Source: an uncultured Candidatus Saccharibacteria bacterium (GTDB lineage Bacteria > Patescibacteriota > Minisyncoccia > Phycocordibacterales > SW-6-46-9). From it: 64,000 bases of DNA. The notes beneath the pieces were generated by a model that made no database searches, was not told the origin of the DNA, and worked only from the letters and a program-made list of their open reading frames with translations. The translations under genes and the position numbers were made by a program. The DNA lies in the NCBI GenBank assembly GCA_964534365.1, contig CAZHOI010000001.1:55560-119559 (forward strand), read 5' to 3'. Positions 43,894 to 63,723 of the stretch are shown here, one piece after another (position 1 is the first letter of the stretch; each line of letters begins with the position of its first letter).

Positions 43894-43914
43894 TGGTGAC
43901 CCTACGGGGAATCG
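43894..43914. repeat. attL-like direct repeat: 21-bp copy of the tRNA-Glu 3' end (TGGTGACCCTACGGGGAATCG)
   Basis: Identical to 56866-56886, which is the 3' end of the intact tRNA-Glu; flanking sequence diverges immediately on both sides. Confidence 0.8.
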
Positions 43915-44236
43915 GTGTCAGCTCACTAATTCGCTAGGCTCATAAGTGGCTCCTACCCGGTCTCGAAAGCTGGGCTTTCTCCGACTTTTGATTATTACCA
44001 CTGGTAATTCACTTAAAACTAAAACAGCTTCAGATAAACTGAAACTGTTGTTAGCTTTTGTGAGCCTATAGCAGGTAGAACTTATTGTTCACCTTGTCAG
44101 GTAAGGCTATTTTAGCACCAAAACATAGATCATATACAACCCTTCAACAGCCCTAGTAAAAAGTGACAAAAGTTACACATATCGCGCTTGTGTCACAAAG
44201 TTACACAGCCCTGTAACAAACGAGTCTTTTTGCCAA

Positions 44237-47200
44237 TTATTTTTTAGCCTTACGAACAGTTCCTTTGACCACTTTCTTGACAGCAGTCTTTTTAGCGACA
44301 GCTTCCTTGGACTTATTTGTTGAGGTAGCTGGAATGTACTTTGTACAGTCAAGAGAAATCGCTGAGACACCATCTATCTTCATGAATGTATACTTAACAG
44401 TATCAAGTGTTTTTAGTTCTTCATTTACAATAATAAGAAAAATCCCGTGGGATGCACCATATCCATCCATGTACCTCTGTAAACTTTTGTATGATTTTGA
44501 TTCTTCAACTTTTCGTCCTCTGATGTCTTTGTTTGAAGTTAATTTTATTTCAACAATAACTGGACCTACAAATCCATATCGAATGATGAGATCCACACGT
44601 TTGTCGTCGAGTAAATCAGGTTCTCTTAAAACTTCAGATTCTATACCTCTTTTGAGAAGCGCATTTTCAATCTGAGTCGTTATTGTTTTTTGTATTAGCT
44701 TTTCGTATTCTTGCTTTTTAGAATCAAGAACTCTACCACCCAGTATCAATTCATAAGCACCTTCTCCTTCAATCCACTTTCGTAAGTCAGAGTCAAAAAC
44801 ATCTTGCAGCTCTCTAGTCAAATCAGCTGATGTTGTTATGCGTGAGTCTACATACTTTCGAGCAGCATTGTATCTCCGTATAGCCTCAGCATATCGAATT
44901 GGTTTTCCTATAGCGTTCAGATAAGCAAGTCGTAGCTTCACAATGTGTCCAGCAAGCCAATTTGCACCTTTCTTCTTTGTACCAATTGCTGCAATTTTTT
45001 CCTCTAAAATCTTTAATGGCTTATAGTCACCAAATTCTTTCAGGTTTTCAAAGTAGGCAAATGTAATCTCCCATAGGTATTGAGCATATGAACGATGGTT
45101 CTCTCCCATGGCCCAAACCTCCAGTGCTCTGTCCAATAATAATAAGTATTCATCTTCGAAACCTTGGTATTTCAAGTCCATAAGTGGCTTTGCAAACTCT
45201 TTACCAAATCGAATTTCATCCTCCATAGGTGTGACAGTATGTGCAAATCTTGACCTTCGTCTCGTCGGGGTAGCTGCCACTCTTGATTTAACTTGATCTA
45301 GCCTCCAATTAACAGCATCACGATTAGCATGTTTAGTGATAAGAAGTGAATTGGCTGCAATAGCAATCTCTCTTTCATCTTCCTGAGTACTCTCTTTGTA
45401 CATTCCAAACACACTCATTAAATAGTTTTCGTCTGAATGTAGGGTTTCTGAAACATTTAGTGCCTTAATTCGGTCTCGTGAGCGAAAGTCGCTTTGATGA
45501 ATAAAGTCTTTTAAAATAGGCAACGCCTTGGTCAGACTGTATTGTTCAACTGAGTCGACAAACGCATCAGGTTGCCATTTCCATAAATCATTATCTCTAG
45601 AAGAATAAATCTCAACTACTGGATCAAGTTCTTCCTCAGTAAAATCAGGAATCAGTTCAAATACCGTTTGTAGCTGTTCGGTGTGAGCAAAAGGTATGAA
45701 CTTAGCGATGTTAGATCTATAAGGGGTGATTTCTATCTTTCTAAGCTGAGCTGATTTTAGAGCATCTCCAAATATTATTGCTGCGCCACTAGCAGTATAG
45801 TTGCGACTTGCACCATCGTCAGTTTCTGAGTTTATGGTGAGGCCGTGTGAAGAAGGATCATGTCGCAAAGCTTCCTGTATTATCAAAGTATCAAATCGAT
45901 ATTTGTCATCGGAACTCATAAGTTTTTCAAGCTTTTCTGCATTTGAGTTGTAATCGTAAAACACTCGATTCATGTACATGTTTTCTGCTGGACAAAGAGA
46001 AGTTTTGAATGCCTCTAAAATCCGATCATCGTTAGCATCATCATGATTTACTTGCTGTTGACTCCTTGCTTCTTCATATTCCTGATATAAGGTTGGCAAT
46101 TTACTTCTACCTGCTTCGTATATCAATTCTGCGTCTTGACCACCCTTTAGTTTAATGCGCGTAAGTGTATGCATTACAACATTTTGCTGTTCGTCAGCAG
46201 CCAACATTGCATCTATAAAGGTTGCAACATCTTCTACTCTCAATAAATCTTCAAAGAAGTCCTGAGCAAAATATAATCCGTGGGCACCTTCCTCATCGCT
46301 GTTGAGCTGATTAATAAGTACAACAAAGAAGTCATCATTTTTATCTCGCAATAACTTCATTATTCCTCTTACAAAAGTCGATTTGCCTCTAGTAGAAGAT
46401 ACGGAGTAGTGGACGGATTTAACAATTGCTTGAAATAACAAATCTTGCATCTCATCGTCAAAACCGTCTTTGATATGATCAACGATTTTCAAGTCTTTAT
46501 CCTTAAAAATTGAAGTATCGTCTAAAAATTCTTTACGGAACTGCTCATCTTCAATATATATTTGCAAGAATTTTTTAATTGCTTGTGGCTCGGTGATTTC
46601 ATATATGCCGTACCGTCCGTGTAAATCATTAGCTCTAATCAGCTTTACAAACGCATTAATACTCCTGTCACTATTAGGATCAAGTGAAGTGCATAGTGAA
46701 ACATACTCGCGCATCACGAGTTCATCAGGAGTGTCTGTGATGTCAGGAAGATCATTAACAATAGTTTTATCACCAAACTCAGCTAGAGCGTACAATGCAT
46801 GTCGAGGCAAAACACCATTCTCATACGCATCTGATGAGTAACTTATTAGTTTTTCCCTCCAGTATTCTTTATCGATTGATACTTTTGATTTCAATAAATA
46901 TGCCAAAATATATGACACGTTTCCTAAGGGTACATAATATTTTGTTGAATCTTTCTGTTCTGTTTCAGCTTTCTCAACAATCTGCTTAAGGAACTTTTCG
47001 AGATCTGAACTAAAGAAAGCAGGTAGTGCCGATGTTAGCTGTCCAGGTATCCACTGAAGCCTATTGTTGTGATAATTTATTACGTCTTTAAACAATCTTT
47101 TTTTAACTTCTAGAGGAGTAAGACTTGGATTAATCCTGCCCAAAAAATTAATAAAAGATTCGTCAACAATTTTGAATGCTGTTCCGCTTATTCCAGAAAA

Positions 47201-48340
47201 GTCGATTAGTTGACCGAGCATCTCAGTGTCCATATCTGTGTAAAAACTAAGAGTATTATACCAAGCCGGATATATCTCTTTCATAACTGGATCAGTGGCG
47301 AATTCAAATATAGCTTTTCGGGGTTCAGCTAAACGAGTTATCTCTTTAGCGGCAAGATATTCTTGAAACTCTACGTTTTCAAACTCAATCTTACCCGTAT
47401 CGTATTTGCTAGTTTGGAGCACTGTGTTCTCTAATAAAATATCTATACCAACTTGAGCAAGTACCATCAGTTTCAGATCGGAACAAATCTCGTCAAAAAA
47501 TGTCACTAGTTCATCACGAGTAATATTATTACTCTGATAAATTTCCATAGTCAGCGCTAGTTTCTCAAGCAATCTTTTTATAACAGGCTCTAAATCACGA
47601 ATTTGTTCATTTCGTCCTGACTCAAGAGATAACTTTGAATAGATAAAGTGTTCAAACAGATCATTACGAGAGAAGTTGGAAATATTTGTAACCCCTTTTG
47701 CTTTAACAAAATCTTCAAATAAAAATAGATAGCGTGGAATTTGGATTATACTCTGGCCATGAAAACGTAACGATCTATTAAGTAAATCTTCGACTTCACC
47801 CTCACTTAGACCGCCTTTTTCAAGGTATTCACTGATTTGACCAGGCGTAAATGGTTTAATTATTATAAATCTGTATGTAGGGAAAGAGCTTGCGTACTTA
47901 TCCATAAACACCCACCGACTTGATATATAGATATTGATTTTTGGATATTTCTCAGATATTTCTTGTATTTTTTTCAGCACGGAATTGAATTCTGAGCGAG
48001 GTACTTCATCTAAAGCATCTAGAAAAAGTGACTTGGTCTTTTTTGATGATTTACCAACAAACTTATCAATTTCATTAATAGCAGTGCGAGAGCTTAAAGG
48101 AATAAAACTTGTTGTATGTCCATCATGCTTAAGATGATTCTCCATCTTTTTAACCAATTCAGTTTTTCCTATACCTGGCTCACCAACCACAACAGTTCTC
48201 CTACCTTGAGCCAAACTACCTATAGGAGTTGGTTTTGCATCATAAAAAACAAAGTGGCCAAACTTATTGTATTGCTCTTTTGCCTCCCTAAAGGAAGATG
48301 AAACTTCAGTGATAGGAATTATGTATCTGTTGTCACTCAT
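44237..48340 (-). CDS. 1367-aa STAND/NACHT-like P-loop NTPase with C-terminal PD-(D/E)xK nuclease-like domain (candidate defence protein)
   Basis: Walker A VVVGEPGIGKTEL (aa ~50-62), Walker B SLFLDALDEV, followed by IYISSRW (the hhhSR element seen in NACHT NTPases). ~900-aa helical middle. C-terminal ...KRVDLIIRYGFVGPVIVEIKL... fits D-x12-E-x-K. Lys-rich tail. Confidence 0.6.
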   Translation of the reverse strand: MSDNRYIIPITEVSSSFREAKEQYNKFGHFVFYDAKPTPIGSLAQGRRTVVVGEPGIGKTELVKKMENHLKHDGHTTSFIPLSSRTAINEIDKFVGKSSKKTKSLFLDALDEVPRSEFNSVLKKIQEISEKYPKINIYISSRWVFMDKYASSFPTYRFIIIKPFTPGQISEYLEKGGLSEGEVEDLLNRSLRFHGQSIIQIPRYLFLFEDFVKAKGVTNISNFSRNDLFEHFIYSKLSLESGRNEQIRDLEPVIKRLLEKLALTMEIYQSNNITRDELVTFFDEICSDLKLMVLAQVGIDILLENTVLQTSKYDTGKIEFENVEFQEYLAAKEITRLAEPRKAIFEFATDPVMKEIYPAWYNTLSFYTDMDTEMLGQLIDFSGISGTAFKIVDESFINFLGRINPSLTPLEVKKRLFKDVINYHNNRLQWIPGQLTSALPAFFSSDLEKFLKQIVEKAETEQKDSTKYYVPLGNVSYILAYLLKSKVSIDKEYWREKLISYSSDAYENGVLPRHALYALAEFGDKTIVNDLPDITDTPDELVMREYVSLCTSLDPNSDRSINAFVKLIRANDLHGRYGIYEITEPQAIKKFLQIYIEDEQFRKEFLDDTSIFKDKDLKIVDHIKDGFDDEMQDLLFQAIVKSVHYSVSSTRGKSTFVRGIMKLLRDKNDDFFVVLINQLNSDEEGAHGLYFAQDFFEDLLRVEDVATFIDAMLAADEQQNVVMHTLTRIKLKGGQDAELIYEAGRSKLPTLYQEYEEARSQQQVNHDDANDDRILEAFKTSLCPAENMYMNRVFYDYNSNAEKLEKLMSSDDKYRFDTLIIQEALRHDPSSHGLTINSETDDGASRNYTASGAAIIFGDALKSAQLRKIEITPYRSNIAKFIPFAHTEQLQTVFELIPDFTEEELDPVVEIYSSRDNDLWKWQPDAFVDSVEQYSLTKALPILKDFIHQSDFRSRDRIKALNVSETLHSDENYLMSVFGMYKESTQEDEREIAIAANSLLITKHANRDAVNWRLDQVKSRVAATPTRRRSRFAHTVTPMEDEIRFGKEFAKPLMDLKYQGFEDEYLLLLDRALEVWAMGENHRSYAQYLWEITFAYFENLKEFGDYKPLKILEEKIAAIGTKKKGANWLAGHIVKLRLAYLNAIGKPIRYAEAIRRYNAARKYVDSRITTSADLTRELQDVFDSDLRKWIEGEGAYELILGGRVLDSKKQEYEKLIQKTITTQIENALLKRGIESEVLREPDLLDDKRVDLIIRYGFVGPVIVEIKLTSNKDIRGRKVEESKSYKSLQRYMDGYGASHGIFLIIVNEELKTLDTVKYTFMKIDGVSAISLDCTKYIPATSTNKSKEAVAKKTAVKKVVKGTVRKAKK

Positions 48341-48389: not shown

Positions 48390-48830
48390 ATGGACATTAA
48401 ACTCTTTGATTTAGAACTCAATCAAGTCAATCCAGCTGATATGGATAAAAATGTTAAGTACGAAGTACTTCGTATCACTGATATAAACCTGCACGGTAAC
48501 CAAAAGCGCCCGACCCAGAACCAAGGCAAGAAAATTGTAAAAGCACTCGAACGATCTGAACCAGTCAGAACCTACCATAAACATAAAAATATTACCCAGG
48601 TAGACGAGAATACCATCACGTCAACACTAGATATGCTGGGTTTTTTGCATAATGATCCGCACTTTGATGCGTATATTAAAAAAGCTCAAGCAGCTGGTAA
48701 AGAAGTGCTGCTCGCATTCCCAGCAGACGGCGTACCCATCTTTCTTGGTAAAGATGCTGCTGAATTTATGGAGGGTACACCTGCTTATAGAAAAACTAGG
48801 TTTGCACAAAAGAAAGACAATGATGTATAA
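48390..48830 (+). CDS. Hypothetical 146-aa protein divergently transcribed from the NTPase-nuclease
   Basis: No recognisable motifs; mixed-charge soluble protein. Position suggests a partner or regulator of the neighbouring gene. Confidence 0.45.
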   Translation: MDIKLFDLELNQVNPADMDKNVKYEVLRITDINLHGNQKRPTQNQGKKIVKALERSEPVRTYHKHKNITQVDENTITSTLDMLGFLHNDPHFDAYIKKAQAAGKEVLLAFPADGVPIFLGKDAAEFMEGTPAYRKTRFAQKKDNDV

Positions 48831-48905
48831 TTGGGGCATCAATCAATAGATTGCTTGTGTACAAAAGCAAGTAGTGTATCGTCTCACGACCATGCCTATT
48901 TCGCA

Positions 48906-48977
48906 CAAGAAATAGTTAACCAATTCGGTTCTGCTATTTCGTGTGTGAGATAGGTATTTTCTATTTCATGCATTTTA
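48906..48977. promoter_or_regulatory. Three CTATTTC boxes (one perfect palindrome CTATTTCGCACAAGAAATAG) upstream of the ParB-methyltransferase operon
   Basis: ctatttcgcacaagaaatag (48906-48925), ctatttcgtgtgtgagatag (48944-48963, imperfect inverted), ctatttc (48971-48977). Confidence 0.45.
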
Positions 48978-48997
48978 TAACTTAAACAAGTTTTAAA

Positions 48998-50281
48998 ATG
49001 ACGAAAAAACTAATATGGCACAACGCCACCAAAACAGTGGATGAACTCATTCCGCAAACTATCAACCCTCGCACCATTACCAACAAACAAATGGACGATC
49101 TCAAGAAGAGTCTAAAGAAATTTGGACTGGCTGAGATACCAGCGATTGATGCCGACGGTACTATACTGGCTGGACATCAGAGAATTAAGGCACTTCAGCT
49201 TCTTGGTCGGGGTAGCGAAGAAATCGACATTCGTGTCCCTAATCGTAAGCTCACCAAAGCTGAAGCAAAGCAGTATCTCATTTCATCAAACAAGCTGGGC
49301 GGTGACTGGGATTTTGAAGCTCTTAAAAGCTTCGATATCGACCTGCTTGCCAACTCTGGCTTCGATGATCTTGAGTTAGCTGAATTTTGGGATAAGGACT
49401 TATCAACTGAAGACGACGAATTTGACGAAGATAAAGAAGTAGATAAAGCCAAGGATACCGATATTGAATCTGGTGATCTTTTGGTACTTGGGAAACATAA
49501 GTTGTTATGCGCAGATTGCACTGATACAAGTGCCGTACAAGCTCTCTTTGGTGATGACCGCACCAGCTTCATCTATTCAGACCCACCGTACAACATCAAC
49601 CTCGACTATGACAAAGGCGTTGGTAACAAAAGCTCGTACGGCGGTAAGGTCGACGACGACAAAAAACCAGAACAATACAAAATGTTTATCAAGCAGACAC
49701 TCGAGGCTGCCTTGTCTGTATCGACCAAAGATACTCATGTGATGTATTGGTGCGATGAAGCGTGGGTTTGGGTATTTCAGACACTGTATAACGAACTTGG
49801 AATTAAAAATCGACGCCTGAACCTATGGTTAAAAAATAATGCCAGCCCGACACCTCAAGTAGCATTTAACAAAGTCGTTGAATTTTGTGTATATGGCACA
49901 CTCGGCAGTCCATATCTATCCAAACAAACCAGAGACGTGACTGAGGTGCAAAACAAAGAACTGGGTACTGGCAATCAGCTACTCGAAGATGTATCTAATG
50001 TCTGGACAGCCAAGCGGCTAAAAGCCAGTGAATACGAACACCCAACTTCTAAGCCGCCGACACTGCATGAAAAAGCAATCAAACGTTGCACAAAATCAAA
50101 TGACATTATTTTCGATTCGTTTGCTGGTTCGGGCAGTACTTTGATTGCCGCTGAAGCACTTAAACGTCGAGTGTATACCATCGAGCAAAGTCCGATATTT
50201 TGTGAAGTTGTTCGTCGGCGATATGAGAAATTAACTGGGAAAAAGGTGCAGCTAATCAAACACTTCTATGAAAAAACCTAG
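48998..50281 (+). CDS. ParB-like nuclease domain fused to beta-class N6-adenine (DPPY) DNA methyltransferase
   Basis: N-terminal ParB/Srx motif ILAGHQRIKAL. MTase motif IV SDPPYNI precedes motif I FDSFAGSGST (beta-class permutation); 427 aa. Confidence 0.8.
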   Translation: MTKKLIWHNATKTVDELIPQTINPRTITNKQMDDLKKSLKKFGLAEIPAIDADGTILAGHQRIKALQLLGRGSEEIDIRVPNRKLTKAEAKQYLISSNKLGGDWDFEALKSFDIDLLANSGFDDLELAEFWDKDLSTEDDEFDEDKEVDKAKDTDIESGDLLVLGKHKLLCADCTDTSAVQALFGDDRTSFIYSDPPYNINLDYDKGVGNKSSYGGKVDDDKKPEQYKMFIKQTLEAALSVSTKDTHVMYWCDEAWVWVFQTLYNELGIKNRRLNLWLKNNASPTPQVAFNKVVEFCVYGTLGSPYLSKQTRDVTEVQNKELGTGNQLLEDVSNVWTAKRLKASEYEHPTSKPPTLHEKAIKRCTKSNDIIFDSFAGSGSTLIAAEALKRRVYTIEQSPIFCEVVRRRYEKLTGKKVQLIKHFYEKT

Positions 50282-50654
50282 ATATTCCAAACAGTTCCTT
50301 GAGGAACTAAAGAAGGTGCCAATTGTGCAAGTGGCGTGCGAGAAGACTGGAGTCTCTAGAAATACTGTCTATCGCTGGAAACGGGACGACAAAGACTTTG
50401 CCGCTGAATTTGATGACGCTTTAGCTGAAGGAGTTAATTACGTCAACGATATGAGTGAAAGTCAGCTATTACAGCTGATCAAAGATCAAAACTTCTCAGC
50501 GGTGCGTTTTTGGCTCAATAAACGCCATCCAGCATACAAGGAGAAGCTTGAAGTAGTGAACAAACATGAGGTTATTGAACTAACAGATAGTCAGAAGAAA
50601 ACTATCAAACAAGCTTTGCAATTAACCAATCCTAAGACAAAAGAACATGACTAA
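50268..50654 (+). CDS. Terminase small-subunit-like HTH protein
   Basis: HTH VACEKTGVSRNTVYRWKRDD near the N-terminus; 128 aa. Overlaps upstream gene by 14 nt and the terminase large subunit by 8 nt (coupled operon). Confidence 0.6.
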   Translation: MKKPRYSKQFLEELKKVPIVQVACEKTGVSRNTVYRWKRDDKDFAAEFDDALAEGVNYVNDMSESQLLQLIKDQNFSAVRFWLNKRHPAYKEKLEVVNKHEVIELTDSQKKTIKQALQLTNPKTKEHD

Positions 50655-52083
50655 CATTCCTAATCATCTCATAGAAAAGATTACTAATGACATCGCCGTT
50701 CGTCGTGAAATCACTAAAGACAGCCATCGGTACTTTATGGCGATTTATCTGCATGAATACATCAAGTATCCAAGTGCTTCATTTCACTCGGAAATGATTG
50801 AATTCACCGAGCGGACAGATGAAAAGCTGTTTGCAGTAGTGTCATTTCGAGGCTCTGCCAAATCAACCATCTTTTCACTGTCGTATCCAATTTGGGCTAT
50901 TCTCGGCAAACAACAGAAAAAGTTTGTGTTGATTATTTCTCGTACCCAAGTGCAAGCTCGACAATTGCTTCACAACATTAAGGTTGAACTAGAACGCAAC
51001 GATCTACTTAAACAAGACCTCGGACCATTTGAAGAACCACAAGATGAATGGCGCGCGGCTTCTATTGTGATACCGAAGTACGATGCTCGTATCATGGTGC
51101 TATCCGCTGATCAAAGTATGCGTGGACTGCGTCATAAGAGTCATCGTCCTGACCTTATTATCTGTGACGATATCGAAGATATCGCTTCAACCAAGACTCA
51201 AGATAATCGAGACAAGACATTCAATTGGTTTACCGGAGAAATCATCCCAGCTGGTGACTTGCATACAAAGATCATCTTGATTGGAAACCTTGTTCATGAC
51301 GACTCACTTATGGTGCGCCTACGTGAAAAAATTGAAAACAATGAAGTGTCAGGAGTGTTTAAAGCTTATCCGCTGATCAACAGTCACGGCGAGTGTTTGT
51401 GGCCAGAGAAATTTCCAGATGAAGCATCACTTGAAGCGTTACGAAAAGAGGTTATGAGCAAACAAGCATGGGAACGTGAGTATTTGCTCAAGATTATTCC
51501 AGACGATGAGCAGATCATAGATCCACTCTGGATTCGTACCTATCACGAGATACCAGCTGATATGAAGCGTCTTGGTGTATTTGTTGGCGTTGATCTAGCA
51601 ATTTCAGAGAAAACTACCGCTGATTATACCGCGATGGTTCCAGTACTAGCTTGTTCACGAAATAGTGAGTTGTATCTGTACGTCTTGCCTGAAATCGTAC
51701 ACGCTCGGATGAGTTTTCCAAAAACGTGTGAGCAGATACAGTATCTTGATCTCAAGCTTAACTCAAAATACAAAATGAATCCGGAGTTTATTATTGAGAA
51801 CGTGGCGTATCAAGATGCAGTGGTGCAGCACTTCGATAAAACATCGATTGATGTTGAGGGTGTGCGTCCGCTTGGTGACAAGCGAGAAAGACTGAACCTT
51901 GCTGCTACAGCTTTGAGTGATAAGCGAGTGTTCTTCCCGCATGAAGCTAGCGATAAACTCATTCAAGAGTTAGTCCACTTTGGCTCAGAAAAGCATGACG
52001 ACCTAGCAGATGCATTTTCGCTAGTGACACTAGAGGTGATGGTTAATAAGAAACCAGAGCGACCGGTAGTGTTTTTTGCGTAG
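50647..52083 (+). CDS. Phage terminase large subunit
   Basis: ATPase Walker A VVSFRGSAKST and Walker B DLIICDDIED, C-terminal RNase-H-like nuclease region (GVDLAISEKTTADYTA ... D residues); 478 aa. Confidence 0.8.
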   Translation: MTNIPNHLIEKITNDIAVRREITKDSHRYFMAIYLHEYIKYPSASFHSEMIEFTERTDEKLFAVVSFRGSAKSTIFSLSYPIWAILGKQQKKFVLIISRTQVQARQLLHNIKVELERNDLLKQDLGPFEEPQDEWRAASIVIPKYDARIMVLSADQSMRGLRHKSHRPDLIICDDIEDIASTKTQDNRDKTFNWFTGEIIPAGDLHTKIILIGNLVHDDSLMVRLREKIENNEVSGVFKAYPLINSHGECLWPEKFPDEASLEALRKEVMSKQAWEREYLLKIIPDDEQIIDPLWIRTYHEIPADMKRLGVFVGVDLAISEKTTADYTAMVPVLACSRNSELYLYVLPEIVHARMSFPKTCEQIQYLDLKLNSKYKMNPEFIIENVAYQDAVVQHFDKTSIDVEGVRPLGDKRERLNLAATALSDKRVFFPHEASDKLIQELVHFGSEKHDDLADAFSLVTLEVMVNKKPERPVVFFA

Positions 52084-52151
52084 CGAGTATGTGACGCTTT
52101 TAATACCCTGCATAGCTATGCAGGGTATTTTGGTCTGTCATTAATATAGAT

Positions 52152-53447
52152 ATGGAAGGAGATATATCTCTATCAGAAGCAAGAGTCAGATACTGTCTAT
52201 ACGCTAGAAAATCGACCGAATCAGACGAACAACAGGCGCTGTCGATAGATTCCCAGATTAAAGAAATGCAGGCCATTGCAGAGCGCTTGAAACTCAATGT
52301 GGTGGATGTGAAGCGTGAGTCACACTCTGCTAAAGAGTCTGGCAAGCGACCAGTCTTTAAAGAGTTGCTCGGAGATATCGCAAACGAAAAATACAACGGT
52401 ATTCTCACCTGGGCACCAGATCGTCTGTCTCGAAACGCTGGTGACCTTGGTACTGTGGTTGACCTCATGGACGCAGGGAAACTGATTCATATTCAAACGT
52501 ATGGACAAACCTTCTCAAACTCACCAAACGAGAAGTTCTTACTGATGATTTTGTGCTCCCAAGCCAAGCTCGAAAACGACAACAAGAGCATTAATGTGAA
52601 GCGTGGTATGCGAGCTAGGGTTGAAATGGGCCTATGGCCCTGCAAGCCACCGACTGGCTATACTAGATTTAAACGCATTGACCAGAAGTGCGAAGCAATC
52701 CTTGATCCTGAACGCGCACCAATGATTAAACAAATGTTTGAGAAGATAGGCTATGATGGCTGGACAGGAAGAAAGCTACACTTATGGCTGAGAGATGAGA
52801 TTGATTTTAGAACTGAAAACGGCAAACATCTTTGCCTCGGCAACCTCTATCGCATAATCCAAAACCACTTTTACTACGGCAGATTTGAGTATCCCAAGAA
52901 TTCTGGCAACTGGTATGACGGTGTCCATGAACCAATCATCACCAAGGAGCTGTTTAATATCGTGCAAGAACAGATCAAAAGCCAAATCCTCGAACCACGT
53001 TCAGCCCAAAAAGAGTTCGCTTTCACTAAAACCATGACCTGCGGTCTCTGTGGCTCAGGCATTACCGCTGATGAGAAGTTTAAAAAGCAAAAGAATGGCA
53101 ATATCCACCGCTACGTTTACTACAAATGTACCCGCACCCGCGATCCTCACTGTGACTGTGGGTTTATCAATGAAAATGACCTGATAACCCAACTACAAGC
53201 CCTCTTGGATGATATAGATATCAAAGTGGTACCGATGCGAGACAAGATCACCAACGAAGTTCGCCGCTACAAGCAATTTCAGCAGATGCTCTTAGGAAAT
53301 GAGACCAAGATTTCGGTCAAAGATATTGATATCCGCAATTACTGTAAGTTTATCTTGCAAGAAGGAGACCTAGAAGAAAAGCGTGATTTTCTTAGATGTT
53401 TGAAGAGTAACGTCTATCTAAACAAAAAAGTAATCAAACTTCAGTAG
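52152..53447 (+). CDS. Large serine recombinase (integrase)
   Basis: Resolvase catalytic domain YARKSTESDEQQALSIDSQ with the nucleophile Ser, recombinase domain, C-terminal zinc ribbon CGLCGSG...YYKCTRTRDPHCDC; 431 aa. Confidence 0.85.
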   Translation: MEGDISLSEARVRYCLYARKSTESDEQQALSIDSQIKEMQAIAERLKLNVVDVKRESHSAKESGKRPVFKELLGDIANEKYNGILTWAPDRLSRNAGDLGTVVDLMDAGKLIHIQTYGQTFSNSPNEKFLLMILCSQAKLENDNKSINVKRGMRARVEMGLWPCKPPTGYTRFKRIDQKCEAILDPERAPMIKQMFEKIGYDGWTGRKLHLWLRDEIDFRTENGKHLCLGNLYRIIQNHFYYGRFEYPKNSGNWYDGVHEPIITKELFNIVQEQIKSQILEPRSAQKEFAFTKTMTCGLCGSGITADEKFKKQKNGNIHRYVYYKCTRTRDPHCDCGFINENDLITQLQALLDDIDIKVVPMRDKITNEVRRYKQFQQMLLGNETKISVKDIDIRNYCKFILQEGDLEEKRDFLRCLKSNVYLNKKVIKLQ

Positions 53448-53482: not shown

Positions 53483-53806
53483 ATGGTTGAACAAAGTATT
53501 AATTTAGACACTGTCTTTCAGGCTCTCGCCGACCAAACACGGCGGGATATCTTAAAGCGGGTGTCACAAGCCGAGCTTTCCATAAGCAAGCTCGCTGAAC
53601 CATACAAAATGTCCTTTGCAGCAATTGCTAAACATGTGGGTGTGCTCGAGCGTGCCAATTTGGTTGCTAAACGTCGTGAAGGCAAACAACAAATTATCAG
53701 TGTTGTGCCAAAGACCGTTGCCGTCGCCACGACCCATCTTGAGTTGTATGAAAAGATGTGGAATGAACGCTTCAATGCATTGGAGGTACTCCTTAATGAA
53801 AAATAA
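53483..53806 (+). CDS. ArsR-family transcriptional regulator
   Basis: ALADQTRRDILKRVSQAELSISKLAEPYKMSFAAIAKHVGVLERANLV = ArsR/SmtB winged HTH; 107 aa. Confidence 0.85.
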   Translation: MVEQSINLDTVFQALADQTRRDILKRVSQAELSISKLAEPYKMSFAAIAKHVGVLERANLVAKRREGKQQIISVVPKTVAVATTHLELYEKMWNERFNALEVLLNEK

Positions 53807-54251
53807 TATGAAAACACTTACCTATTCAATTCAAATCAACAAACCACAAGAGTTTGTTTTTAATAAGCTTATAGACAAGTCTGTATATCCAGGCTGGTCC
53901 AAAGCCTGGGGTGAAGGAATGATTTACGATGGTGACTGGAAAGAGGGCGGTCACATTTCCTTTTTTGATAAAGAAAGAGGCGGTACGAAGGTAGTGATAG
54001 AAGAATATAAACCATACCAGTGTATCAAAACCAAGCACATAGCGATGGTCAATCCTCAAAACGAAGAAATATCTCTAACTGACGATATGATGAAGAAATG
54101 GATGGGTACGCGAGAGGATTACTATTTTATAGCCAACGACGATAGAACCACCACATTTGAAGTCATTATGGTTACCGATGAGGCTTTTGAAGAGATGATG
54201 AATGCGTGGTCACAAGCGCTCGTGTATTTCAAAGAAATTTGTGAAGCCTAA
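53796..54251 (+). CDS. SRPBCC (AHSA1/Aha1-like) domain protein
   Basis: Track ORF 53616..54251 overlaps arsR; the in-frame Met at 53796 (MKNNMKTLTYSIQINKPQEFVFNKL...) gives a ~151-aa SRPBCC-sized protein. Confidence 0.6.
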   Translation: MKNNMKTLTYSIQINKPQEFVFNKLIDKSVYPGWSKAWGEGMIYDGDWKEGGHISFFDKERGGTKVVIEEYKPYQCIKTKHIAMVNPQNEEISLTDDMMKKWMGTREDYYFIANDDRTTTFEVIMVTDEAFEEMMNAWSQALVYFKEICEA

Positions 54252-54289
54252 AGTAAAAATTATTAAACCCTAAGTTAAGTACAAAATAT

Positions 54290-54766
54290 ATGGCAACACT
54301 AAAAGTAACTGCTCCAGAACACTCACAAGACATTATTGGTGAGGTCGAAATTAACGCCCCTTTAGAGAAAGTATTTGAAGCCTTTATTAACAAAGATTTA
54401 TTCATTAAATGGTTTTGTCGTGGCAACACTGTCACAGTTAACCAGTTTGAAGGTAAGGACGGTGGCACGTGGGATATTGCTGAGCGAGACCCTGAAGGAA
54501 ATGAATGGGGCTTCTACGGTGTTTTTCACGAAATTGCTCCAAGTGAACGAATCATTTGGACGTTTGAGTTTATGGGTATACAAGAGCGAGGTCATGTCTC
54601 ACTCGAACGTATGGAGTTCACCGACGCCGGTGACGGCACGACTAAAATGAAAAGTATTTCTACCTTCCTCACCAAAGAAGACCGTGATGGCATGGTCGCC
54701 AGTGGTATGGAGGCTGGCTGGCGACAGTCAATTGAAGCCTTAGAAGAGGTGGTAAATGAGAAATAA
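54290..54766 (+). CDS. SRPBCC (AHSA1-like) domain protein
   Basis: INAPLEKVFEAFINKDLFIKWF... typical Aha1/SRPBCC start; 158 aa. Confidence 0.65.
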   Translation: MATLKVTAPEHSQDIIGEVEINAPLEKVFEAFINKDLFIKWFCRGNTVTVNQFEGKDGGTWDIAERDPEGNEWGFYGVFHEIAPSERIIWTFEFMGIQERGHVSLERMEFTDAGDGTTKMKSISTFLTKEDRDGMVASGMEAGWRQSIEALEEVVNEK

Positions 54767-55244
54767 TAAATCTATGAAAAAACTAACTATCGAACGAACC
54801 TTTAATCATCCAATTGAAAAAGTCTGGGCAGCCTGGACAACTCCTGAGCTACTAGCACAGTGGTTCACCCCAACCGGAATGACCAATACGCTTGCTACCG
54901 CTGACGTGGAAGTCGGCGGCCTCTTTCGGTACTGCTTTAAGAGCGTTGAAGATGGGAAAGAGTACTATGGTCGTGGACGTTACCACACCATCACACCGAT
55001 GACGCGCCTCTCATACTACGACTCATTTACTGATGAGACCGGTGCTGACGTGCCAGCTTCACATTATGGAGCGGGTAGCGACCAGATTGAAGAGACGTTG
55101 GTAGATATTAGGTTTGAAGATTTAGGTGAACAAACTAAGATGACGATTGAGATGGAAAATCCATATGCTGACAACCCAGAAATGGCTGCACAAATGATGG
55201 CTGGCTGGAACAGTATGTTTGATAAGCTTGCAAACCTTCAATAA
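54756..55244 (+). CDS. SRPBCC (AHSA1-like) domain protein
   Basis: ERTFNHPIEKVWAAWTTPELLAQWF; 162 aa. Confidence 0.65.
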   Translation: MRNNKSMKKLTIERTFNHPIEKVWAAWTTPELLAQWFTPTGMTNTLATADVEVGGLFRYCFKSVEDGKEYYGRGRYHTITPMTRLSYYDSFTDETGADVPASHYGAGSDQIEETLVDIRFEDLGEQTKMTIEMENPYADNPEMAAQMMAGWNSMFDKLANLQ

Positions 55245-55743
55245 TATGTTTTTGTTCGGGAAAGAAAAAACTCTGCAATTTGAAAGAGAGTTTAATGCTC
55301 CAGTTGAAAAGGTCTGGGATGCCTTTACTATCCCGACAATCCTAACACAGTGGTGGGGACCAGAAGGAACGACGATTCCAGAGTGCGAGATGGATGTAAA
55401 AGTTGGAGGTAAAATTAGAATTGTAATGGAAGCTGGTAAAAGTATGGGTTCGTATGCTGGTACCCGCTGGCCACTTGAGGGTCACTTCACGTTAGTAAAG
55501 CAACATGAACAATTACAATATGAAGCACTCGCTTGGACTGAAGGAAGGAAAGACACTACTACGATAGATCAAATAAATGATGTAACTCTTACAATAAATG
55601 GCGAAAAAACTAATATGGTTTTCATTGTCACTATTAAGAAGACGGGTATTAAAGCCAGTATGGCAGCTTTTGGTATGAAAATGGGGTATGCATCGCAATT
55701 CAAGAAATTAGAGCAATTATTTAATGCAGACAATAATCAATAA
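55219..55743 (+). CDS. SRPBCC (AHSA1-like) domain protein
   Basis: EREFNAPVEKVWDAFTIPTILTQWW; 174 aa (start possibly at internal Met). Confidence 0.65.
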   Translation: MISLQTFNNMFLFGKEKTLQFEREFNAPVEKVWDAFTIPTILTQWWGPEGTTIPECEMDVKVGGKIRIVMEAGKSMGSYAGTRWPLEGHFTLVKQHEQLQYEALAWTEGRKDTTTIDQINDVTLTINGEKTNMVFIVTIKKTGIKASMAAFGMKMGYASQFKKLEQLFNADNNQ

Positions 55744-55746
55744 TAT

Positions 55747-56103
55747 ATGAAAATTACTACAAAAATTATTCAGATACTTCTTGCGCTGTGGTTTATAGCT
55801 GGAGCGATGTATATGATGGGAAATTTCGAGTTCTTAGCCAGTGAAGCCGCCAGTACCTGGTCACAGTTGTTTTGGGTAACGCTTGGTGTGGTTCAAATAT
55901 TACTCGCACTCACTTTACTAATTGGAGCATTTTGGAAGAAAGCGCAGTCGTATGTTCCTGTGGTTGGACTGGGACTGATAATCATTACGCTTGGTGGATT
56001 ATATTGGTACAGTGCGTATAAAGGCTTTTCAGGGTCACTCTGGGCAATAGTTCCAGCCTTACTACTAGGTTGGGTAGTATACTTTTATAAAGCTAAATCA
56101 TAA
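55747..56103 (+). CDS. DoxX-like membrane protein
   Basis: Four hydrophobic helices, 118 aa, typical DoxX size and pattern. Confidence 0.55.
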   Translation: MKITTKIIQILLALWFIAGAMYMMGNFEFLASEAASTWSQLFWVTLGVVQILLALTLLIGAFWKKAQSYVPVVGLGLIIITLGGLYWYSAYKGFSGSLWAIVPALLLGWVVYFYKAKS

Positions 56104-56390
56104 TGACAAAGACAATCACTAAAACCACCGCCTATCACGACGTTCCAAAAACTGTGTTAGCTGTACTGAAGAAAGATATGCAGCTCACTGAGATTTGGAA
56201 CGGTTTGACCGATATCCAACGCAACGAGTGGTGTTGTTACGCTGAGACTGGCAAGAAAGAAGAAACTCGAGCAGAACACCTCCGCCGGTTTGAGAGCGAC
56301 ATGAAAGCCGGTAAAAAGACGCCATGTTGTTGGCCTGGTTGTCCACATCGCAGGCCGAAAGCCGCTAAGTGGTTTGGTACTAAAAAATAA
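56103..56390 (+). CDS. YdeI/OmpD-associated family protein
   Basis: LTDIQRNEWCCYAETGKKEETRAEHLRRFESDMKAGKK resembles the YdeI-family conserved core; 95 aa. Confidence 0.55.
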   Translation: MTKTITKTTAYHDVPKTVLAVLKKDMQLTEIWNGLTDIQRNEWCCYAETGKKEETRAEHLRRFESDMKAGKKTPCCWPGCPHRRPKAAKWFGTKK

Positions 56391-56392
56391 CT

Positions 56393-56758
56393 ATGACAAA
56401 TCACAATGTAAAGACTGTAAATGAGTTTATAAAAGAATCTGCAAAAGATGCACGACCTCACCTCAAAGAGCTTCAAGCGCTAATACAAGCAACAGTGAAG
56501 GGTGTTGAAGAGACAATTAGTTATGGTAAGCCTTACTACAAACTAAACGGTCATTTGGTTGGTTTTGATGCCTATAAGCAACATATTGGTTTTGAAATAT
56601 ATGAAGGTCAACTCGATGAGGAACATAGGTCTAAACTCGAAGAGAAAGGGTATAAAACCGGGAGCAAAGGATTTCAGATAAGTTTTGATCAAAAGGTGCC
56701 AGTTGCTATAGTAAAGAAAGTCGTTAAGCGTCAGGTCTCTGTAAATAAAAACAAATAA
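56393..56758 (+). CDS. DUF1801 (YdhG-like) domain protein
   Basis: VNEFIKESAKDARPHLKELQALIQATVKGVEETISYGKPYYKLNGHLVGFDAYKQHIGF pattern of DUF1801; 121 aa. Confidence 0.6.
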   Translation: MTNHNVKTVNEFIKESAKDARPHLKELQALIQATVKGVEETISYGKPYYKLNGHLVGFDAYKQHIGFEIYEGQLDEEHRSKLEEKGYKTGSKGFQISFDQKVPVAIVKKVVKRQVSVNKNK

Positions 56759-56777
56759 CAACATTTTCACCCAACAC

Positions 56778-56808
56778 AAAAAACAGCCTCAAGTGAGGCT
56801 GTTTTTTG
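56778..56808 (+). terminator. Rho-independent terminator ending the island operon
   Basis: aaaaa-cagcctca-agtg-aggctg-tttttt. Confidence 0.75.
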
Positions 56809-56865
56809 TGTTGTTTGAGCTAGTGTTTTTGAGTCTAATTACGACCCATAAACAGCTAGCTGTCA

Positions 56866-56940
56866 ATGGTGACCCTACGGGGAATCGAACCCCGGTTTTC
56901 GCCGTGAGAGGGCGATGTCCTAGCCGCTAGACGATAGGGC
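56866..56940 (-). tRNA. tRNA-Glu (anticodon CTC), with encoded CCA
   Basis: Reverse complement GGCCCTATCGTCTAGCGGCTAGGACATCGCCCTCTCACGGCGAAAACCGGGGTTCGATTCCCCGTAGGGTCACCA. Anticodon stem TCGCC/GGCGA, loop CT-CTC-AC, T-loop GGTTCGATTCC. Confidence 0.85.
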
Positions 56941-57080
56941 CGTCTTTTATCATAAATAATTTTAGAAAATTATTTATTTTGGGCATAGATTTGCCACCAA
57001 ATCTATTAGCCTTGTGTAGAAATTTTAGTTTACCAAAGTATAAATATCAAATATTAAACACTGAAAGTTTGTGGCAATAC

Positions 57081-57122
57081 CAAATACCAAATACCAAATA
57101 CCAAATACCAAATACCAAATAC
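57081..57122. repeat. Heptanucleotide microsatellite (CAAATAC)6 with degenerate flanking copies
   Basis: caaatac repeated six times exactly, preceded by caatac and followed by caataaa. Intergenic between tRNA-Glu and the ftsI stop. Confidence 0.9.
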
Positions 57123-57136
57123 CAAATACCAATAAA

Positions 57137-60990: not shown

Positions 60991-61125
60991 TCAGGAGATA
61001 CGGCGATTGGTGGGTGGCGGCGGGTTCTCGCTCTCGCAGCTCTCGTCCCGGCGGGCAAAGCCCATCACAAGCATGAGAAGCAGAAAAAGAACAATTACCA
61101 ACACGAGGAGGATTTCGGGGATCAT
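60991..61125 (-). CDS. 44-aa single-TM peptide (GC-rich block)
   Basis: MIPEILLVLVIVLFLLLMLVMGFARRDESCESENPPPPTNRRIS; below the ORF-track size cutoff. Confidence 0.3.
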   Translation of the reverse strand: MIPEILLVLVIVLFLLLMLVMGFARRDESCESENPPPPTNRRIS

Positions 61126-61185
61126 CGCGGTTGGGGTCTAGTGTAGTTTTAATCTAGCATACTTCTAAAGGATTTATTTTTGTTG

Positions 61186-61230
61186 AAAAAGAAAAACCCG
61201 CCGGTTGCTGGAGTGGCAACACGACGGGTA
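61186..61230 (-). terminator. Rho-independent terminator (minus strand) after the 41-aa peptide gene
   Basis: Minus-strand acccgtcg-tgttgccactccagcaac-cggcgggt followed by tttttc. Confidence 0.5.
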
Positions 61231-61248
61231 GGTGGTAGGAAGGAAGAA

Positions 61249-61374
61249 TCATTCGTACATTCTTCCGGTCGGATCCAACTCATCCAATGCTCTATTGGTG
61301 TGGTGGATCACTATACTCCACATGGTTAGGAACGCTCCCACGGCAAGGGTGCCAATAACAGTGGCTAATTTCAT
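61249..61374 (-). CDS. 41-aa single-TM peptide (GC-rich block)
   Basis: MKLATVIGTLAVGAFLTMWSIVIHHTNRALDELDPTGRMYE. Confidence 0.3.
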   Translation of the reverse strand: MKLATVIGTLAVGAFLTMWSIVIHHTNRALDELDPTGRMYE

Positions 61375-61530
61375 AGCGAGGGTCAGGTTGTGAAGCTTAA
61401 TTATGCCATAAATTGTATAGTATGTAAAAAAAACCCCGGCGGCGCTGTGCGTCGTCGGGGACCGTGGCAGTTCGTAAACTCCAAGGTATTACGTGATTTT
61501 ACGCTCACGTTAAGCGTTTTCAGTTGCGGA

Positions 61531-62619
61531 CTACTGTCTCCAAGGAAAGAACGTCGCTCCCACCTGCACATACGGTCCACCAGTGGGGGCGGCGTAGTAC
61601 AGCGAAGTGACGTGGCGGTACCCCGCCCCAATTGTGAAGTCCACGTCAGGCAGGGTTTCTACACCAACTTGCCCTCCGAGAGAGAAACTCACGTGGGTAC
61701 GACCGATGCCGTCACGAACGGACTCGGTACGGGTTCCGCCGATGCCGACGCTCGGTCCAGCGCTAATCTCGGAGTTGGCGAAGTGGTCGAGCAAATCGTA
61801 GGTGAGATTCACCTCAACGCTCAACAACTCCTCTGCGAACTCTGTGTTGCACTGTCCCGCAGAGGCGGGGTATGCACCCAGCTCGCCGCCGCAGGTTTCG
61901 GCGTAACCGATACCTACGGCATCGTATGCCAGGGACTTGAGCCCGCCATATCCGAACTGGACACCGCCGCCGAAGTTGTTGTACCACGGGGCAACCTCTT
62001 TCGCCTCTTGCGGCTTGGGAGCCGGCGGAGGCGGGGTCGGACGCGGCTGGCGACGCTCGGCGACAAGCGCCGGGCGAACCATCACAAGGTCGCAGTCTTC
62101 TCTCGCACAGGTCTGGGGGATCAAATCCACCCGACGTTGCCTAGCGTGCTCGAATTGAAACCCTTCGCGGTCCTTGGCGATTTTAGCGTCCTCAGGCTCG
62201 AGGAAGCCGGTGACCGGCTCGTCGACGTTTACGTCGACGTTGCAGTTACGCACGCCGAGCTTGTACAGCTCGTTGCGCACGAACTCGGCGCGGTCGCGGG
62301 CCAGCTGCTGAGCGTTTACGCTACGCAGCTCAACCTCCGACAGGCGGGGCGAGATGATGTAGCTGGTCTGGGGGCAAGCCCGCAAGATCTCAGCCACATC
62401 CTCAAGAACGTATGGGTTCTCTGCTGTGGAGTTTCCTTCGCTGAAGAAAAGCTCCTCCAGCTCGATGATCTGCCGGCATTGTGCCGAAGTCATCACAACG
62501 TTCTCGATCACGTCAGCCTGAGGCTGGCGCGGGACTATCTGGTCCGTCTGCGCCGTCGCAGGAACGGCGGTCAGGAGGACGGCGCAGAGCGCCAGGAAAA
62601 ACAGGTTGAGGTGGTTCAT
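61531..62619 (-). CDS. Secreted OmpA-like domain protein with Gly-rich C-terminal beta-rich region
   Basis: Signal peptide MNHLNLFFLALCAVLLTAVPATAQT. OmpA-family peptidoglycan-binding motif NAQQLARDRAEFVRNELYKLGV (N..LS..RA..V...L...G). Pro-rich linker, then a G/alternating-hydrophobic C-terminus ending in F-P-W. The antisense 419-aa ORF is Arg-rich nonsense. Confidence 0.5.
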   Translation of the reverse strand: MNHLNLFFLALCAVLLTAVPATAQTDQIVPRQPQADVIENVVMTSAQCRQIIELEELFFSEGNSTAENPYVLEDVAEILRACPQTSYIISPRLSEVELRSVNAQQLARDRAEFVRNELYKLGVRNCNVDVNVDEPVTGFLEPEDAKIAKDREGFQFEHARQRRVDLIPQTCAREDCDLVMVRPALVAERRQPRPTPPPPAPKPQEAKEVAPWYNNFGGGVQFGYGGLKSLAYDAVGIGYAETCGGELGAYPASAGQCNTEFAEELLSVEVNLTYDLLDHFANSEISAGPSVGIGGTRTESVRDGIGRTHVSFSLGGQVGVETLPDVDFTIGAGYRHVTSLYYAAPTGGPYVQVGATFFPWRQ

Positions 62620-62991
62620 GAGGGGGCGCCGCGGGGGCGCGGGGTATGAGTGATGACGAGGTTAGGCCAGTCACAAGTGACGAGCCGACCCTGGTTCACT
62701 GACCTCTAGCACTAGTCTATTTCTAGACAGCAACTGAAAAGTCAAAGAACTGGGGTCGAGTTGCATTATTGCAACCGACTCTATCCATAATAATACATTA
62801 GAATCTGTATTTTGTCAAATAGCTTTACCTCTTTTATTACCACTATTACTACGTTAATGAAGTATGAGAAAAGCCTGCTGGAACGTGTATCGAAAACCAG
62901 GCAGGCTAGAATCCGCAGTGTTCACCGCGAATCAGAAGGAACATTATTTTCGACTTTAGTTTCCCTCTTCTCTGGGCGCCTTACAGGACGC

Positions 62992-63462: not shown

Positions 63463-63723
63463 GATCGTATATGCCGGCTTTGTCTGAAGAGACTATCCGG
63501 CAGCGTATGAGAAAAGAGAGACTTGTCGAGGTGCGTTTGCACTTGATGGGCCACTATGGATGGCGGGCTGTAGACAGCGGTTTAACGGCTATCTAGAGCG
63601 TGCCACCAGTGGTCACCTCTAACTACTAATATACCAGATTTAGAATATTTGTCAAGTTATTTAGTATTAAAAAACCACCATTGCTGGCAGCTTTTTAAAG
63701 GTTCTTTTATTAAATAACCTTGT

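Follow-up and report, generated by a model that had tools for sequence, protein, structure and literature searches.

Phage-inducible chromosomal islands (PICIs) by definition comprise an integrase, a regulator and a primase-replicase, frequently a capsid-morphogenesis gene as well, and the small terminase subunit TerS, with the capsid-forming PICIs (cfPICIs) adding capsid and connector genes and the large terminase subunit TerL (PMC10085698). Marine virion-encapsidated integrative mobile elements (VEIMEs) and tycheposons encode TerS or a major capsid protein, not TerL. Across these groups, TerS without TerL is found in PICIs, VEIMEs and tycheposons, and TerL together with capsid genes in cfPICIs (PMC10085698, PMC9618062, 10.1101/2020.12.28.424599). 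The island described here lies in a window of 64,000 nt (the whole stretch of DNA analysed), positions 55,560–119,559 of the forward strand of contig CAZHOI010000001.1 (GCA_964534365.1), from an uncultured Candidatus Saccharibacteria bacterium (GTDB Patescibacteriota, Minisyncoccia, Phycocordibacterales, SW-6-46-9). It encodes both TerS and TerL, a ParB-like domain fused to a DNA methyltransferase (ParB-MTase) and a large serine recombinase, with no capsid genes. From its sequence and that of its relatives, we consider it moderately probable that the island spreads by hijacking the capsids of helper phages, as a satellite with its own complete terminase. Gene movement in the candidate phyla radiation (CPR), whose members are episymbionts with tiny genomes and few known mobile elements, is poorly understood.

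Protein families were assigned with Pfam, PHROG, NCBIfam and PADLOC profiles and RNAs with Rfam and ARAGORN, and folds were compared through AlphaFold models and Foldseek searches of the PDB. Relatives of TerL were sought among species representatives (one genome per species), and 104 non-redundant loci sharing the core made up the comparative set. Negative results for structural genes cover the element, its flanks in the window and the related loci around TerL.

An integrated island with a complete terminase and no virion genes

The following features define the island and its core.

43894..43914, no strand: attL, a copy of the tRNA-Glu 3' end, TGGTGACCCTACGGGGAATCG, and exact repeat of 56867–56887
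48998..50281, plus strand: N6/N4 DNA methyltransferase carrying a ParB-like domain at its N-terminus, 427 aa, first gene of the packaging operon
50268..50654, plus strand: TerS, a helix-turn-helix protein of 128 aa (PHROG TerS families)
50647..52083, plus strand: TerL, 478 aa, N-terminal ASCE ATPase and C-terminal RNase-H-like nuclease, distantly T7-like
52103..52131, plus strand: hairpin resembling an intrinsic terminator, ATACCCTGCATAGCTATGCAGGGTAT followed by TTTT, closing the packaging operon (sequence reading)
52152..53447, plus strand: large serine recombinase, 431 aa, the element's only integrase (Pfam, PHROG)
56867..56941, minus strand: tRNA-Glu(CUC) (ARAGORN and Rfam), whose 3'-terminal 21 nt (56867–56887) are attR

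An exact 21-bp direct repeat, TGGTGACCCTACGGGGAATCG, is present at 43894–43914 and 56867–56887. Because these copies of the tRNA 3' end delimit the island, its size is given by their spacing of 12,973 bp, in agreement with the 13-kb element of a first-pass annotation that had been made from the sequence alone. No match to the repeat arose by chance in 100 shuffles. A third, internal att copy, which would be a sign of tandem elements, was absent at up to 3 mismatches. Sixteen genes lie between the repeats, four of which (118–174 aa) have no family match. None of the 16 matched a portal, capsid, tail or lysis family in Pfam, PHROG or NCBIfam, as the first-pass annotation had held, and no primase, helicase or Rep protein was found in the element with the same three collections, nor among the displayed PHROG matches of recurrent backbone clusters in its relatives. 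Structural genes are likewise missing just outside the boundaries, where the att repeats are flanked by housekeeping genes: DnaB, RecR, L21 and a DKNYY protein on the left, and tRNA-Glu, FtsI, FtsL, RsmH and MraZ on the right, the remainder of the window also being housekeeping.

The packaging operon opens with ParB-MTase, which matched Pfam N6_N4_Mtase (1.4e-27), phrog_498 (1.2e-79) and the ParB-like phrog_620 (5.7e-26). Its TAG stop codon at 50279–50281 lies past the ATG of terS, giving an overlap of 14 nt, and the 3' end of terS, ATGACTAA, includes the ATG of terL in an overlap of 8 nt; both overlaps had been reported at first pass and can be read directly in the DNA. TerS matched six PHROG TerS families (best 1.2e-10) and Pfam HTH_Tnp_1_2 above its cut-off, with a weak match to Sf6_terminase. 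TerL matched phrog_38, 'terminase large subunit', with an E-value of 3e-76; the NCBIfam T7-type TerL and psiM2_ORF9 nuclease domain (TIGR01630) models scored below their cut-offs and Pfam Terminase_6C weakly. The sole significant PDB sequence match of TerL was 8dgc_E, the TerL of the T7-like phage PhiV-1, in which the Walker motifs align. An AlphaFold model of TerL (pLDDT 84.6) returned only large terminases as top Foldseek matches in the PDB, in the order PhiV-1 (2.5e-19), D6E, HK97 and T7, with isolated ATPase and nuclease domains as further matches; the nuclease domains matched included those of G20c, P74-26, RB49 and human cytomegalovirus (HCMV). The first-pass identification of a TerS-like helix-turn-helix protein and a bona fide TerL, with the open reading frames (ORFs) as stated there, is therefore supported by PHROG, Pfam and Foldseek.

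Residue conservation was assessed in an alignment of 26 TerL homologues of 47–100% identity. Within the Walker A motif FRGSAKST (67–74), F67, R68, S70, K72, S73 and T74 are invariant and G69 nearly so. D174, D175 and E177 of the Walker B motif DLIICDDIED are invariant, as are the acidic nuclease residues D316, E384, D451, D452 and D455. The first-pass annotation had named inactivating substitutions in these motifs as a sign of a dead remnant, and none was found. Together with the phrog_38, PDB and Foldseek matches, the invariant catalytic residues therefore identify a genuine TerL that carries no inactivating change. All four core ORFs are full length.

A family of islands across the candidate phyla radiation

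The exact TerL was found on four contigs with identical context. Homologues of 68–80% identity, on Parcubacteria and Paceibacterota contigs, retain the same core between differing flanks, with CBASS, DUF6119, Shedu, Fic or TerB_N genes on the left and Cu oxidase, P-type ATPase, CDF or ZIP genes on the right. At about 50% identity the core is still retained, beside Shedu, DruA, type ISP restriction-modification (RM), Gabija-like OLD+UvrD or reverse transcriptase genes. At least 554 matches to TerL relatives were confirmed among species representatives, and the best 80 are almost all Patescibacteria of many classes. Complete CPR genomes with the element include CP175956.1 and JBLYPX010000001.1. 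Several records with a CPR-type core are titled Gammaproteobacteria, Bdellovibrionales or Methanosarcinales (L033, L036, L044, L048, L051, L052, L064, L069, L089, L024); these are probably mis-binned or mislabelled metagenome-assembled genomes, although they may reflect real spread outside the CPR.

Within the 104 loci, TerL is immediately preceded by a TerS-like ORF in 101 and has ParB-MTase upstream of it in 96; in 79, a serine recombinase follows TerL within 10 kb. A CI-like S24 repressor is present in 33, and the CI/S24 or M78-type repressors of relatives lie far from the integrase. The backbone can be read as a fixed order, in which a left-end array, cargo slot 1, often a CI-like S24 repressor, a gene for a protein named p146, a leader and ParB-MTase are followed by TerS, TerL, a terminator, cargo slot 2, the serine recombinase, cargo slot 3 and the tRNA 3' end. 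None of the recurrent gene clusters of the 104 loci is structural, with no head, portal or tail family among the top 25 PHROG families displayed. These were drawn from 40 representatives of recurrent clusters and 99 ORFs downstream of TerL, which matched repressors, reverse transcriptases, helicases, methyltransferases, nucleases and ABC transporters. As a positive control, the same method recovered portal, MuF-like, protease and major-head genes directly behind TerL in IMG/VR relatives whose TerL is no more than 38% identical; these relatives are true phages.

The closest capsid-bearing relatives of the element TerL, at 36–38% identity, are carried by five IMG/VR phages (L114, L115, L117, L120 and L122). 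In these the gene order is ParB-MTase, a gene of about 375 aa, TerS (about 190 aa), TerL, a portal–MuF-like fusion and major head. The phage ancestry of the packaging module is clear because some true phages also place ParB-MTase upstream of TerS and TerL, and these five may resemble the ancestor or the helpers of the islands. Among deposited phage records, the 15 best-ranked of 558 matching ones show at most 26% identity to TerL. Neighbour-joining (NJ) placed the 101 element TerLs together in a single clade, with all 46 phage TerLs falling outside it.

Selection was gauged from non-synonymous (dN) and synonymous (dS) divergence. Against L015 and L016, TerL is 89% identical in protein and about 77% in codon-aligned DNA, with dN of 0.066–0.073 and saturated dS. 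Across all comparisons dN ranged over 0.066–0.24, again with dS saturated, and the other core genes behaved alike, so that purifying selection on TerL, as judged from these alignments, is strong. Literature searches, including full text, returned no description of this element in CPR, and the family is apparently undescribed and specific to Patescibacteria. With high confidence, the element belongs to a conserved, mobile family of capsid-less terminase islands.

The serine recombinase and the mobility of the island

The recombinase contains the Pfam domains Resolvase, Recombinase and Zn_ribbon_recom, all above cut-off, and matched the integrase family phrog_95 at 8e-60. The sequence YARKSTESDEQ at its N-terminus matches the catalytic-serine motif. 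Targeting of tRNA 3' ends is more typical of tyrosine than of serine integrases; a tyrosine integrase was rejected as the cause of the tRNA repeat, none being present in the element.

Beyond the recombinase, a minus-strand tRNA for Glu, Gln, Ser, Asn, Tyr or Trp lies within 10 kb in 19 of 60 loci, and in a few others a plus-strand tRNA lies on the opposite side; the tRNA 3' end faces the element in every case. Locus L046 has an analogous 22-bp tRNA-Trp repeat with a spacing of 18,273 bp. Among 20 loci with an adjacent tRNA, recombinase clades follow the identity of the target (Glu, Gln, Ser, Asn): in 12 of them the closest recombinase belongs to a locus with the same type of tRNA, and all pairs above about 76% identity have their tRNA type in common. 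The modules are also mosaic. Between the element and L020, which occupies the same tRNA-Glu site with different cargo, identity is 93.5% in the recombinase but only 70% in TerL, and pairs of loci have backbones about 87–90% identical in DNA with unrelated cargo and flanks. The tracking of tRNA by recombinase, the att repeats and the mosaic modules therefore indicate a mobile family whose integrase is, very likely, the serine recombinase. Recombinases that track tRNAs in this manner might supply programmable integrases whose att sites can be predicted.

At the right end, the terminal 12 nt of the element, GCTAGCTGTCAA (56855–56866), adjoin attR, and conservation of the stretch 56773–56941 in L020 is 81%. 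An unrelated metagenome contig (L177) also contains GCTAGCTGTCAA with the repeat after it. To the left of attL, an apparent displaced hairpin of the original tRNA terminator can be discerned by eye. The predicted attP junction is ...GCTAGCTGTCAA-TGGTGACCCTACGGGGAATCG-GTGTCAGCTCAC... and the predicted empty attB is ...TTTAGCGAAG-TGGTGACCCTACGGGGAATCG-AACCCCGG.... Two sequences with ends near 43.26–43.30 kb (L175 and L176), considered as alternative junctions, are identical to the window and gave none.

Some loci contain elements in tandem or with duplicated parts, namely L014/L023 (1–1144 and 13755–15074), L033 and L043. In L014 a second serine recombinase immediately precedes the cargo of the next element, L033 is flanked by extra recombinase copies, and L043 has two adjacent TerL genes.

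Conserved non-coding features of the backbone

Three further features recur upstream of the packaging operon and one lies at the right end.

44160..44217, plus strand: left-end GT(G/T)AC repeat array, AAAGTGACAAAAGTTACAC...AAAGTTACAC...TGTAAC (61-bp match to L015)
48390..48830, plus strand: p146, a backbone gene conserved at this position in 27 of the 104 loci
48848..48978, plus strand: conserved leader between p146 and the ParB-MTase gene (alignment A5, covariance model)
56767..56818, no strand: right-end 25-bp inverted repeat, a bidirectional terminator-like hairpin (inverted repeat I2)

The leader contains a long imperfect hairpin (48894–48955) and a U-tract to about 48962, some 40 nt upstream of the ATG of ParB-MTase. 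In alignment A5, 96% of cells are paired and 7 of 17 pairs vary on both sides, a level reached by 0 of 500 shuffles; slid-window controls were 35–53% paired. RNAalifold proposed an alternative fold in which the partner of the 5' arm lies upstream and that of the 3' arm is a conserved TCCATACAT lying downstream. A covariance model of the leader found exactly one plus-strand copy just upstream of the methyltransferase gene in 30 of 100 sources, and other loci have, by eye, hairpins of different sequence in the same layout. With Rfam, at gathering and E-value thresholds, no known RNA was found at the leader, the left-end array or the att region, the tRNA excepted. The structure is observed in these alignments, and the leader is read as a putative terminator whose regulation would gate the packaging operon, and it may represent a new cis-regulatory RNA motif; a dyad acting at the DNA level is a possible alternative.

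The p146 gene was encountered only in loci that also have a type-A leader (not tabulated). It had no Pfam, PHROG, NCBIfam or PADLOC match, a word-based homologue search returned only 9 close relatives, and its AlphaFold model was poor (pLDDT 63) with no fold match in the PDB. A role as regulator of the packaging operon is possible.

In at least 11 distant loci the GT(G/T)AC array recurs at the equivalent position, 4–6.5 kb upstream of TerL; examples are 5352–5412 in L015 and 6262–6320 in L021, the latter about 65 bp from a tRNA-Ser 3' end. In many loci the array is preceded by CGACGCGTCTCGTGC. As judged from its sequence and position, it is a candidate pac site, accessory site of the recombinase or set of iterons. 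The first-pass annotation had pointed to the vicinity of terS for pac- or cos-like sites, but repeats in or near terS are no more than expected by chance. Downstream of the operon, the 64-bp block 52082–52145 keeps its place immediately before the recombinase gene in L015 and L016, also when cargo is inserted after TerL.

Cargo genes and other features of the window

Cargo of the present copy lies in slots 1 and 3.

44237..48340, minus strand: cargo slot 1, a NACHT/STAND-like P-loop NTPase of 1367 aa (Pfam AAA_7, NPHP3_N, KAP_NTPase and NACHT, residues 44–148)
53483..56758, plus strand: cargo slot 3, an ArsR regulator, three SRPBCC/AHSA1 proteins, a small membrane protein, an OmdA/YdeI-like protein and DUF1801 (Pfam; inside the att repeats)

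The NTPase scored far below cut-off against the NCBIfam antiphage HyoA/EruA NACHT models and had no significant PADLOC family, with one marginal match to mad8 (E 0.007). By eye, its C-terminus contains a PD-(D/E)XK-like motif, DLIIRYGFVGPVIVEIKL. It is probably an uncharacterised anti-phage defence gene, and the same slot holds CBASS, Shedu, Gabija-like or RM genes in relatives. Slot 3 carries Cu, Zn or P-type ATPase genes in relatives. Here, 53483–55743 forms an unusual cluster in which the ArsR-type regulator is followed by a 151-aa ORF with no Pfam match and three consecutive SRPBCC/AHSA1 paralogues.

Two features outside the island were also recorded. A tandem heptamer run of about 8 copies of ACCAAAT/AATACCA occupies ~57078–57133, in the spacer between tRNA-Glu and ftsI. 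At ~61000–63600, a 2.6-kb stretch has 51–66% GC, against about 40% for the genome, and contains overlapping ORFs of 419 aa (plus strand) and 362 aa (minus strand). It had no Pfam match, and no Rfam match even at E-values up to 1, and would be a foreign gene whose family is unknown, or else a large structured RNA.

Proposed transfer and alternative explanations

The established role of TerS is DNA recognition, and that of TerL is cutting and translocation of DNA into portal-bearing procapsids. From these roles a transfer cycle can be proposed. The serine recombinase would insert and excise the element at the tRNA-Glu 3' end, its catalysis being presumed. The leader terminator would keep the packaging operon silent, with read-through on induction or helper infection. 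TerS would then recognise a site on the element, and TerL would cut the element DNA and pump it into the procapsids of a co-infecting helper, while ParB-MTase would mark the element DNA. The methyltransferase may protect the transferred DNA or, in the way that Dam methylation acts on the pac site of phage P1, control pac cleavage. Use of another phage's capsids is proposed because the element has no capsid genes of its own, and a helper would be needed only for compatibility between its portal and TerL. Such transfer would spread the cargo, here the NACHT-like NTPase and the ArsR–SRPBCC cluster and elsewhere CBASS, Shedu, Gabija-like, RM, reverse-transcriptase and metal-resistance genes. The satellite-like interpretation of the first-pass annotation thus gains support at the level of comparative genomics, from a capsid-less core in 104 loci and a single TerL clade; the word satellite is applied on the strength of the architecture, and the element matches no described satellite family.

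Several points weigh against this proposal. No helper phage was identified, and a foreign TerL must dock on the helper portal when the nearest phage TerLs are only about 36–38% identical. Because a replication module is missing, the origin of a concatemeric packaging substrate is unexplained. Among 26 complete short contigs bearing the core, none had the terminal overlap of an excised circle. One metagenome, scanned with a degenerate attB/attP/attL/attR pattern, gave no empty site or circle junction; the scan returned only two attR-like sites, from other organisms, and did not recover the source contigs, so it is uninformative on presence/absence polymorphism. The CI-like repressor of relatives is missing from the present copy, where tblastn found no remnant of it. 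For the comparative data, singleton structural matches at individual loci may escape the top 25 PHROG families, the TerL tree is an NJ tree with midpoint rooting only, and the IMG/VR membership of some loci is a prediction and no proof of encapsidation.

One alternative is packaging in situ, in the manner of lateral transduction or a gene transfer agent (GTA). Packaging would start at the left-end array while the element is integrated, and the element with neighbouring chromosome would enter helper or host-encoded capsids with neither excision nor replication. The missing replication module is in keeping with this, as is the conserved array, which sits at the very left of the element, ahead of all cargo, and mostly in fixed orientation to TerS and TerL; phages and PICIs have been reported to mobilise defence genes by lateral transduction (PMC12829572). 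The function of the array is only a candidate one, however, and the serine recombinase and exact att repeats argue for a cycle of excision and integration, so that packaging in situ is considered unlikely.

An equally improbable alternative is a defence or interference island without capsid transfer, in which the terminase and ParB-MTase act as an anti-phage device, for instance by cutting or mis-packaging phage concatemers, and the island moves rarely, for instance by natural competence. The backbone is surrounded by CBASS, Shedu, Gabija-like, Druantia DruA, RM, reverse transcriptase and NACHT genes, replication genes are missing, no excised form was seen among the 26 short contigs, and known satellites also interfere with helper packaging. 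However, a full TerS and TerL, with ATPase and nuclease both strongly selected, exceeds the needs of a defence nuclease. The phage-like repressor, leader control and site-specific integrase instead fit an inducible transfer cycle, and PADLOC gave no convincing model match for either TerS or TerL.

The decayed prophage of the first-pass annotation, whose leftover packaging genes would be drifting to loss, draws on the true phages with the same ParB-MTase...TerS–TerL order in the wider TerL family (L114–L122), which indicate phage origin, and on the missing repressor of the present copy, but it is hardly credible and is effectively excluded by family-wide selection and mobility signals: core ORFs are full length with invariant catalytic residues in an intact TerL, dN is low while dS is saturated, the same capsid-less core occurs in 104 loci of many CPR classes with TerLs monophyletic by NJ, and the att repeats are precise with backbone conserved and cargo swapped.

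A helper-dependent satellite accordingly remains the preferred explanation. Only tentatively, and with more doubt than confidence, can the island be put forward as the founding example of phylum-wide CPR satellites that combine TerS and TerL, ParB-MTase and a tRNA-targeting serine integrase with neither capsid nor replication genes. These would package themselves, possibly in situ from the left-end array and unreplicated, into unrelated helper capsids under the gate of an undescribed terminator/antiterminator leader RNA, and would be a major route for defence and stress genes.

Comparison with known systems

The element resembles PICIs of the Staphylococcus aureus pathogenicity island (SaPI) type as a 10–15-kb att-flanked island with an integrase, its own TerS, accessory or defence cargo and no virion genes (PMC10085698). 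Phage-like regulation is a further likeness, seen on the element side in relatives; the present copy has no master regulator of the Stl, AlpA or MerR type next to the integrase. PICIs differ in that they use a tyrosine integrase, carry a primase-replicase and in many cases a gene for capsid remodelling, and rely on the TerL of the helper. The element instead uses a large serine recombinase, encodes its own TerL and ParB-MTase, and lacks both a replicon and a cpm-like gene. With cfPICIs it shares the encoding of both TerS and TerL, but cfPICIs also have a major capsid protein, protease, portal and head–tail connectors, where the element has TerS and TerL only.

PICI-like elements (PLEs) of Vibrio cholerae are similar in integrating through a large serine recombinase and in lacking capsid genes. 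PLEs are confined to Vibrio, have their own replication and interference genes, are described as expected to need ICP1 factors for packaging, and have no sequence relationship with the element. Tycheposons of Prochlorococcus are likewise tRNA-targeted cargo elements of a streamlined genome, a minority of which use large serine recombinases; those of PICI-like type encode either TerS or a major capsid protein (10.1101/2020.12.28.424599). They differ in having mostly tyrosine recombinases and replication modules, with no TerL or ParB-MTase core reported.

Large terminases of T7-like and other phages share with the element TerL the two-domain fold, Walker A and B motifs and acidic nuclease triad, with PhiV-1 and T7 as best PDB matches, and differ in that no portal or capsid gene follows the element TerL. 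GTAs have a structural cluster, are inherited vertically and lack integrase and att sites, in contrast to the att repeats, recombinase, variable tRNA targets and missing structural cluster of the element. Phage-inducible chromosomal minimalist islands (PICMIs) are very small marine satellites with no known capsid-remodelling genes and reportedly helper-dependent replication. Their core consists of an integrase, AlpA and Fis and, to our knowledge, includes no terminase.

A core of ParB-MTase, TerS, TerL and serine recombinase with neither capsid genes nor replicon thus fits, by gene content, none of the published satellite definitions. The family combines this fixed phage-derived core with three cargo slots for defence and metal or stress genes. 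Should the islands indeed travel in helper capsids, they would be the first reported CPR satellites and would represent a new satellite design, a full terminase without capsid genes or replicon. Its parts can be tested separately, as a family of tRNA-targeting serine integrases with predictable att sites, a leader RNA and a candidate pac array. Such a design would widen the criteria used by satellite finders, as current PICI, cfPICI, P4 and PLE models would miss the element.

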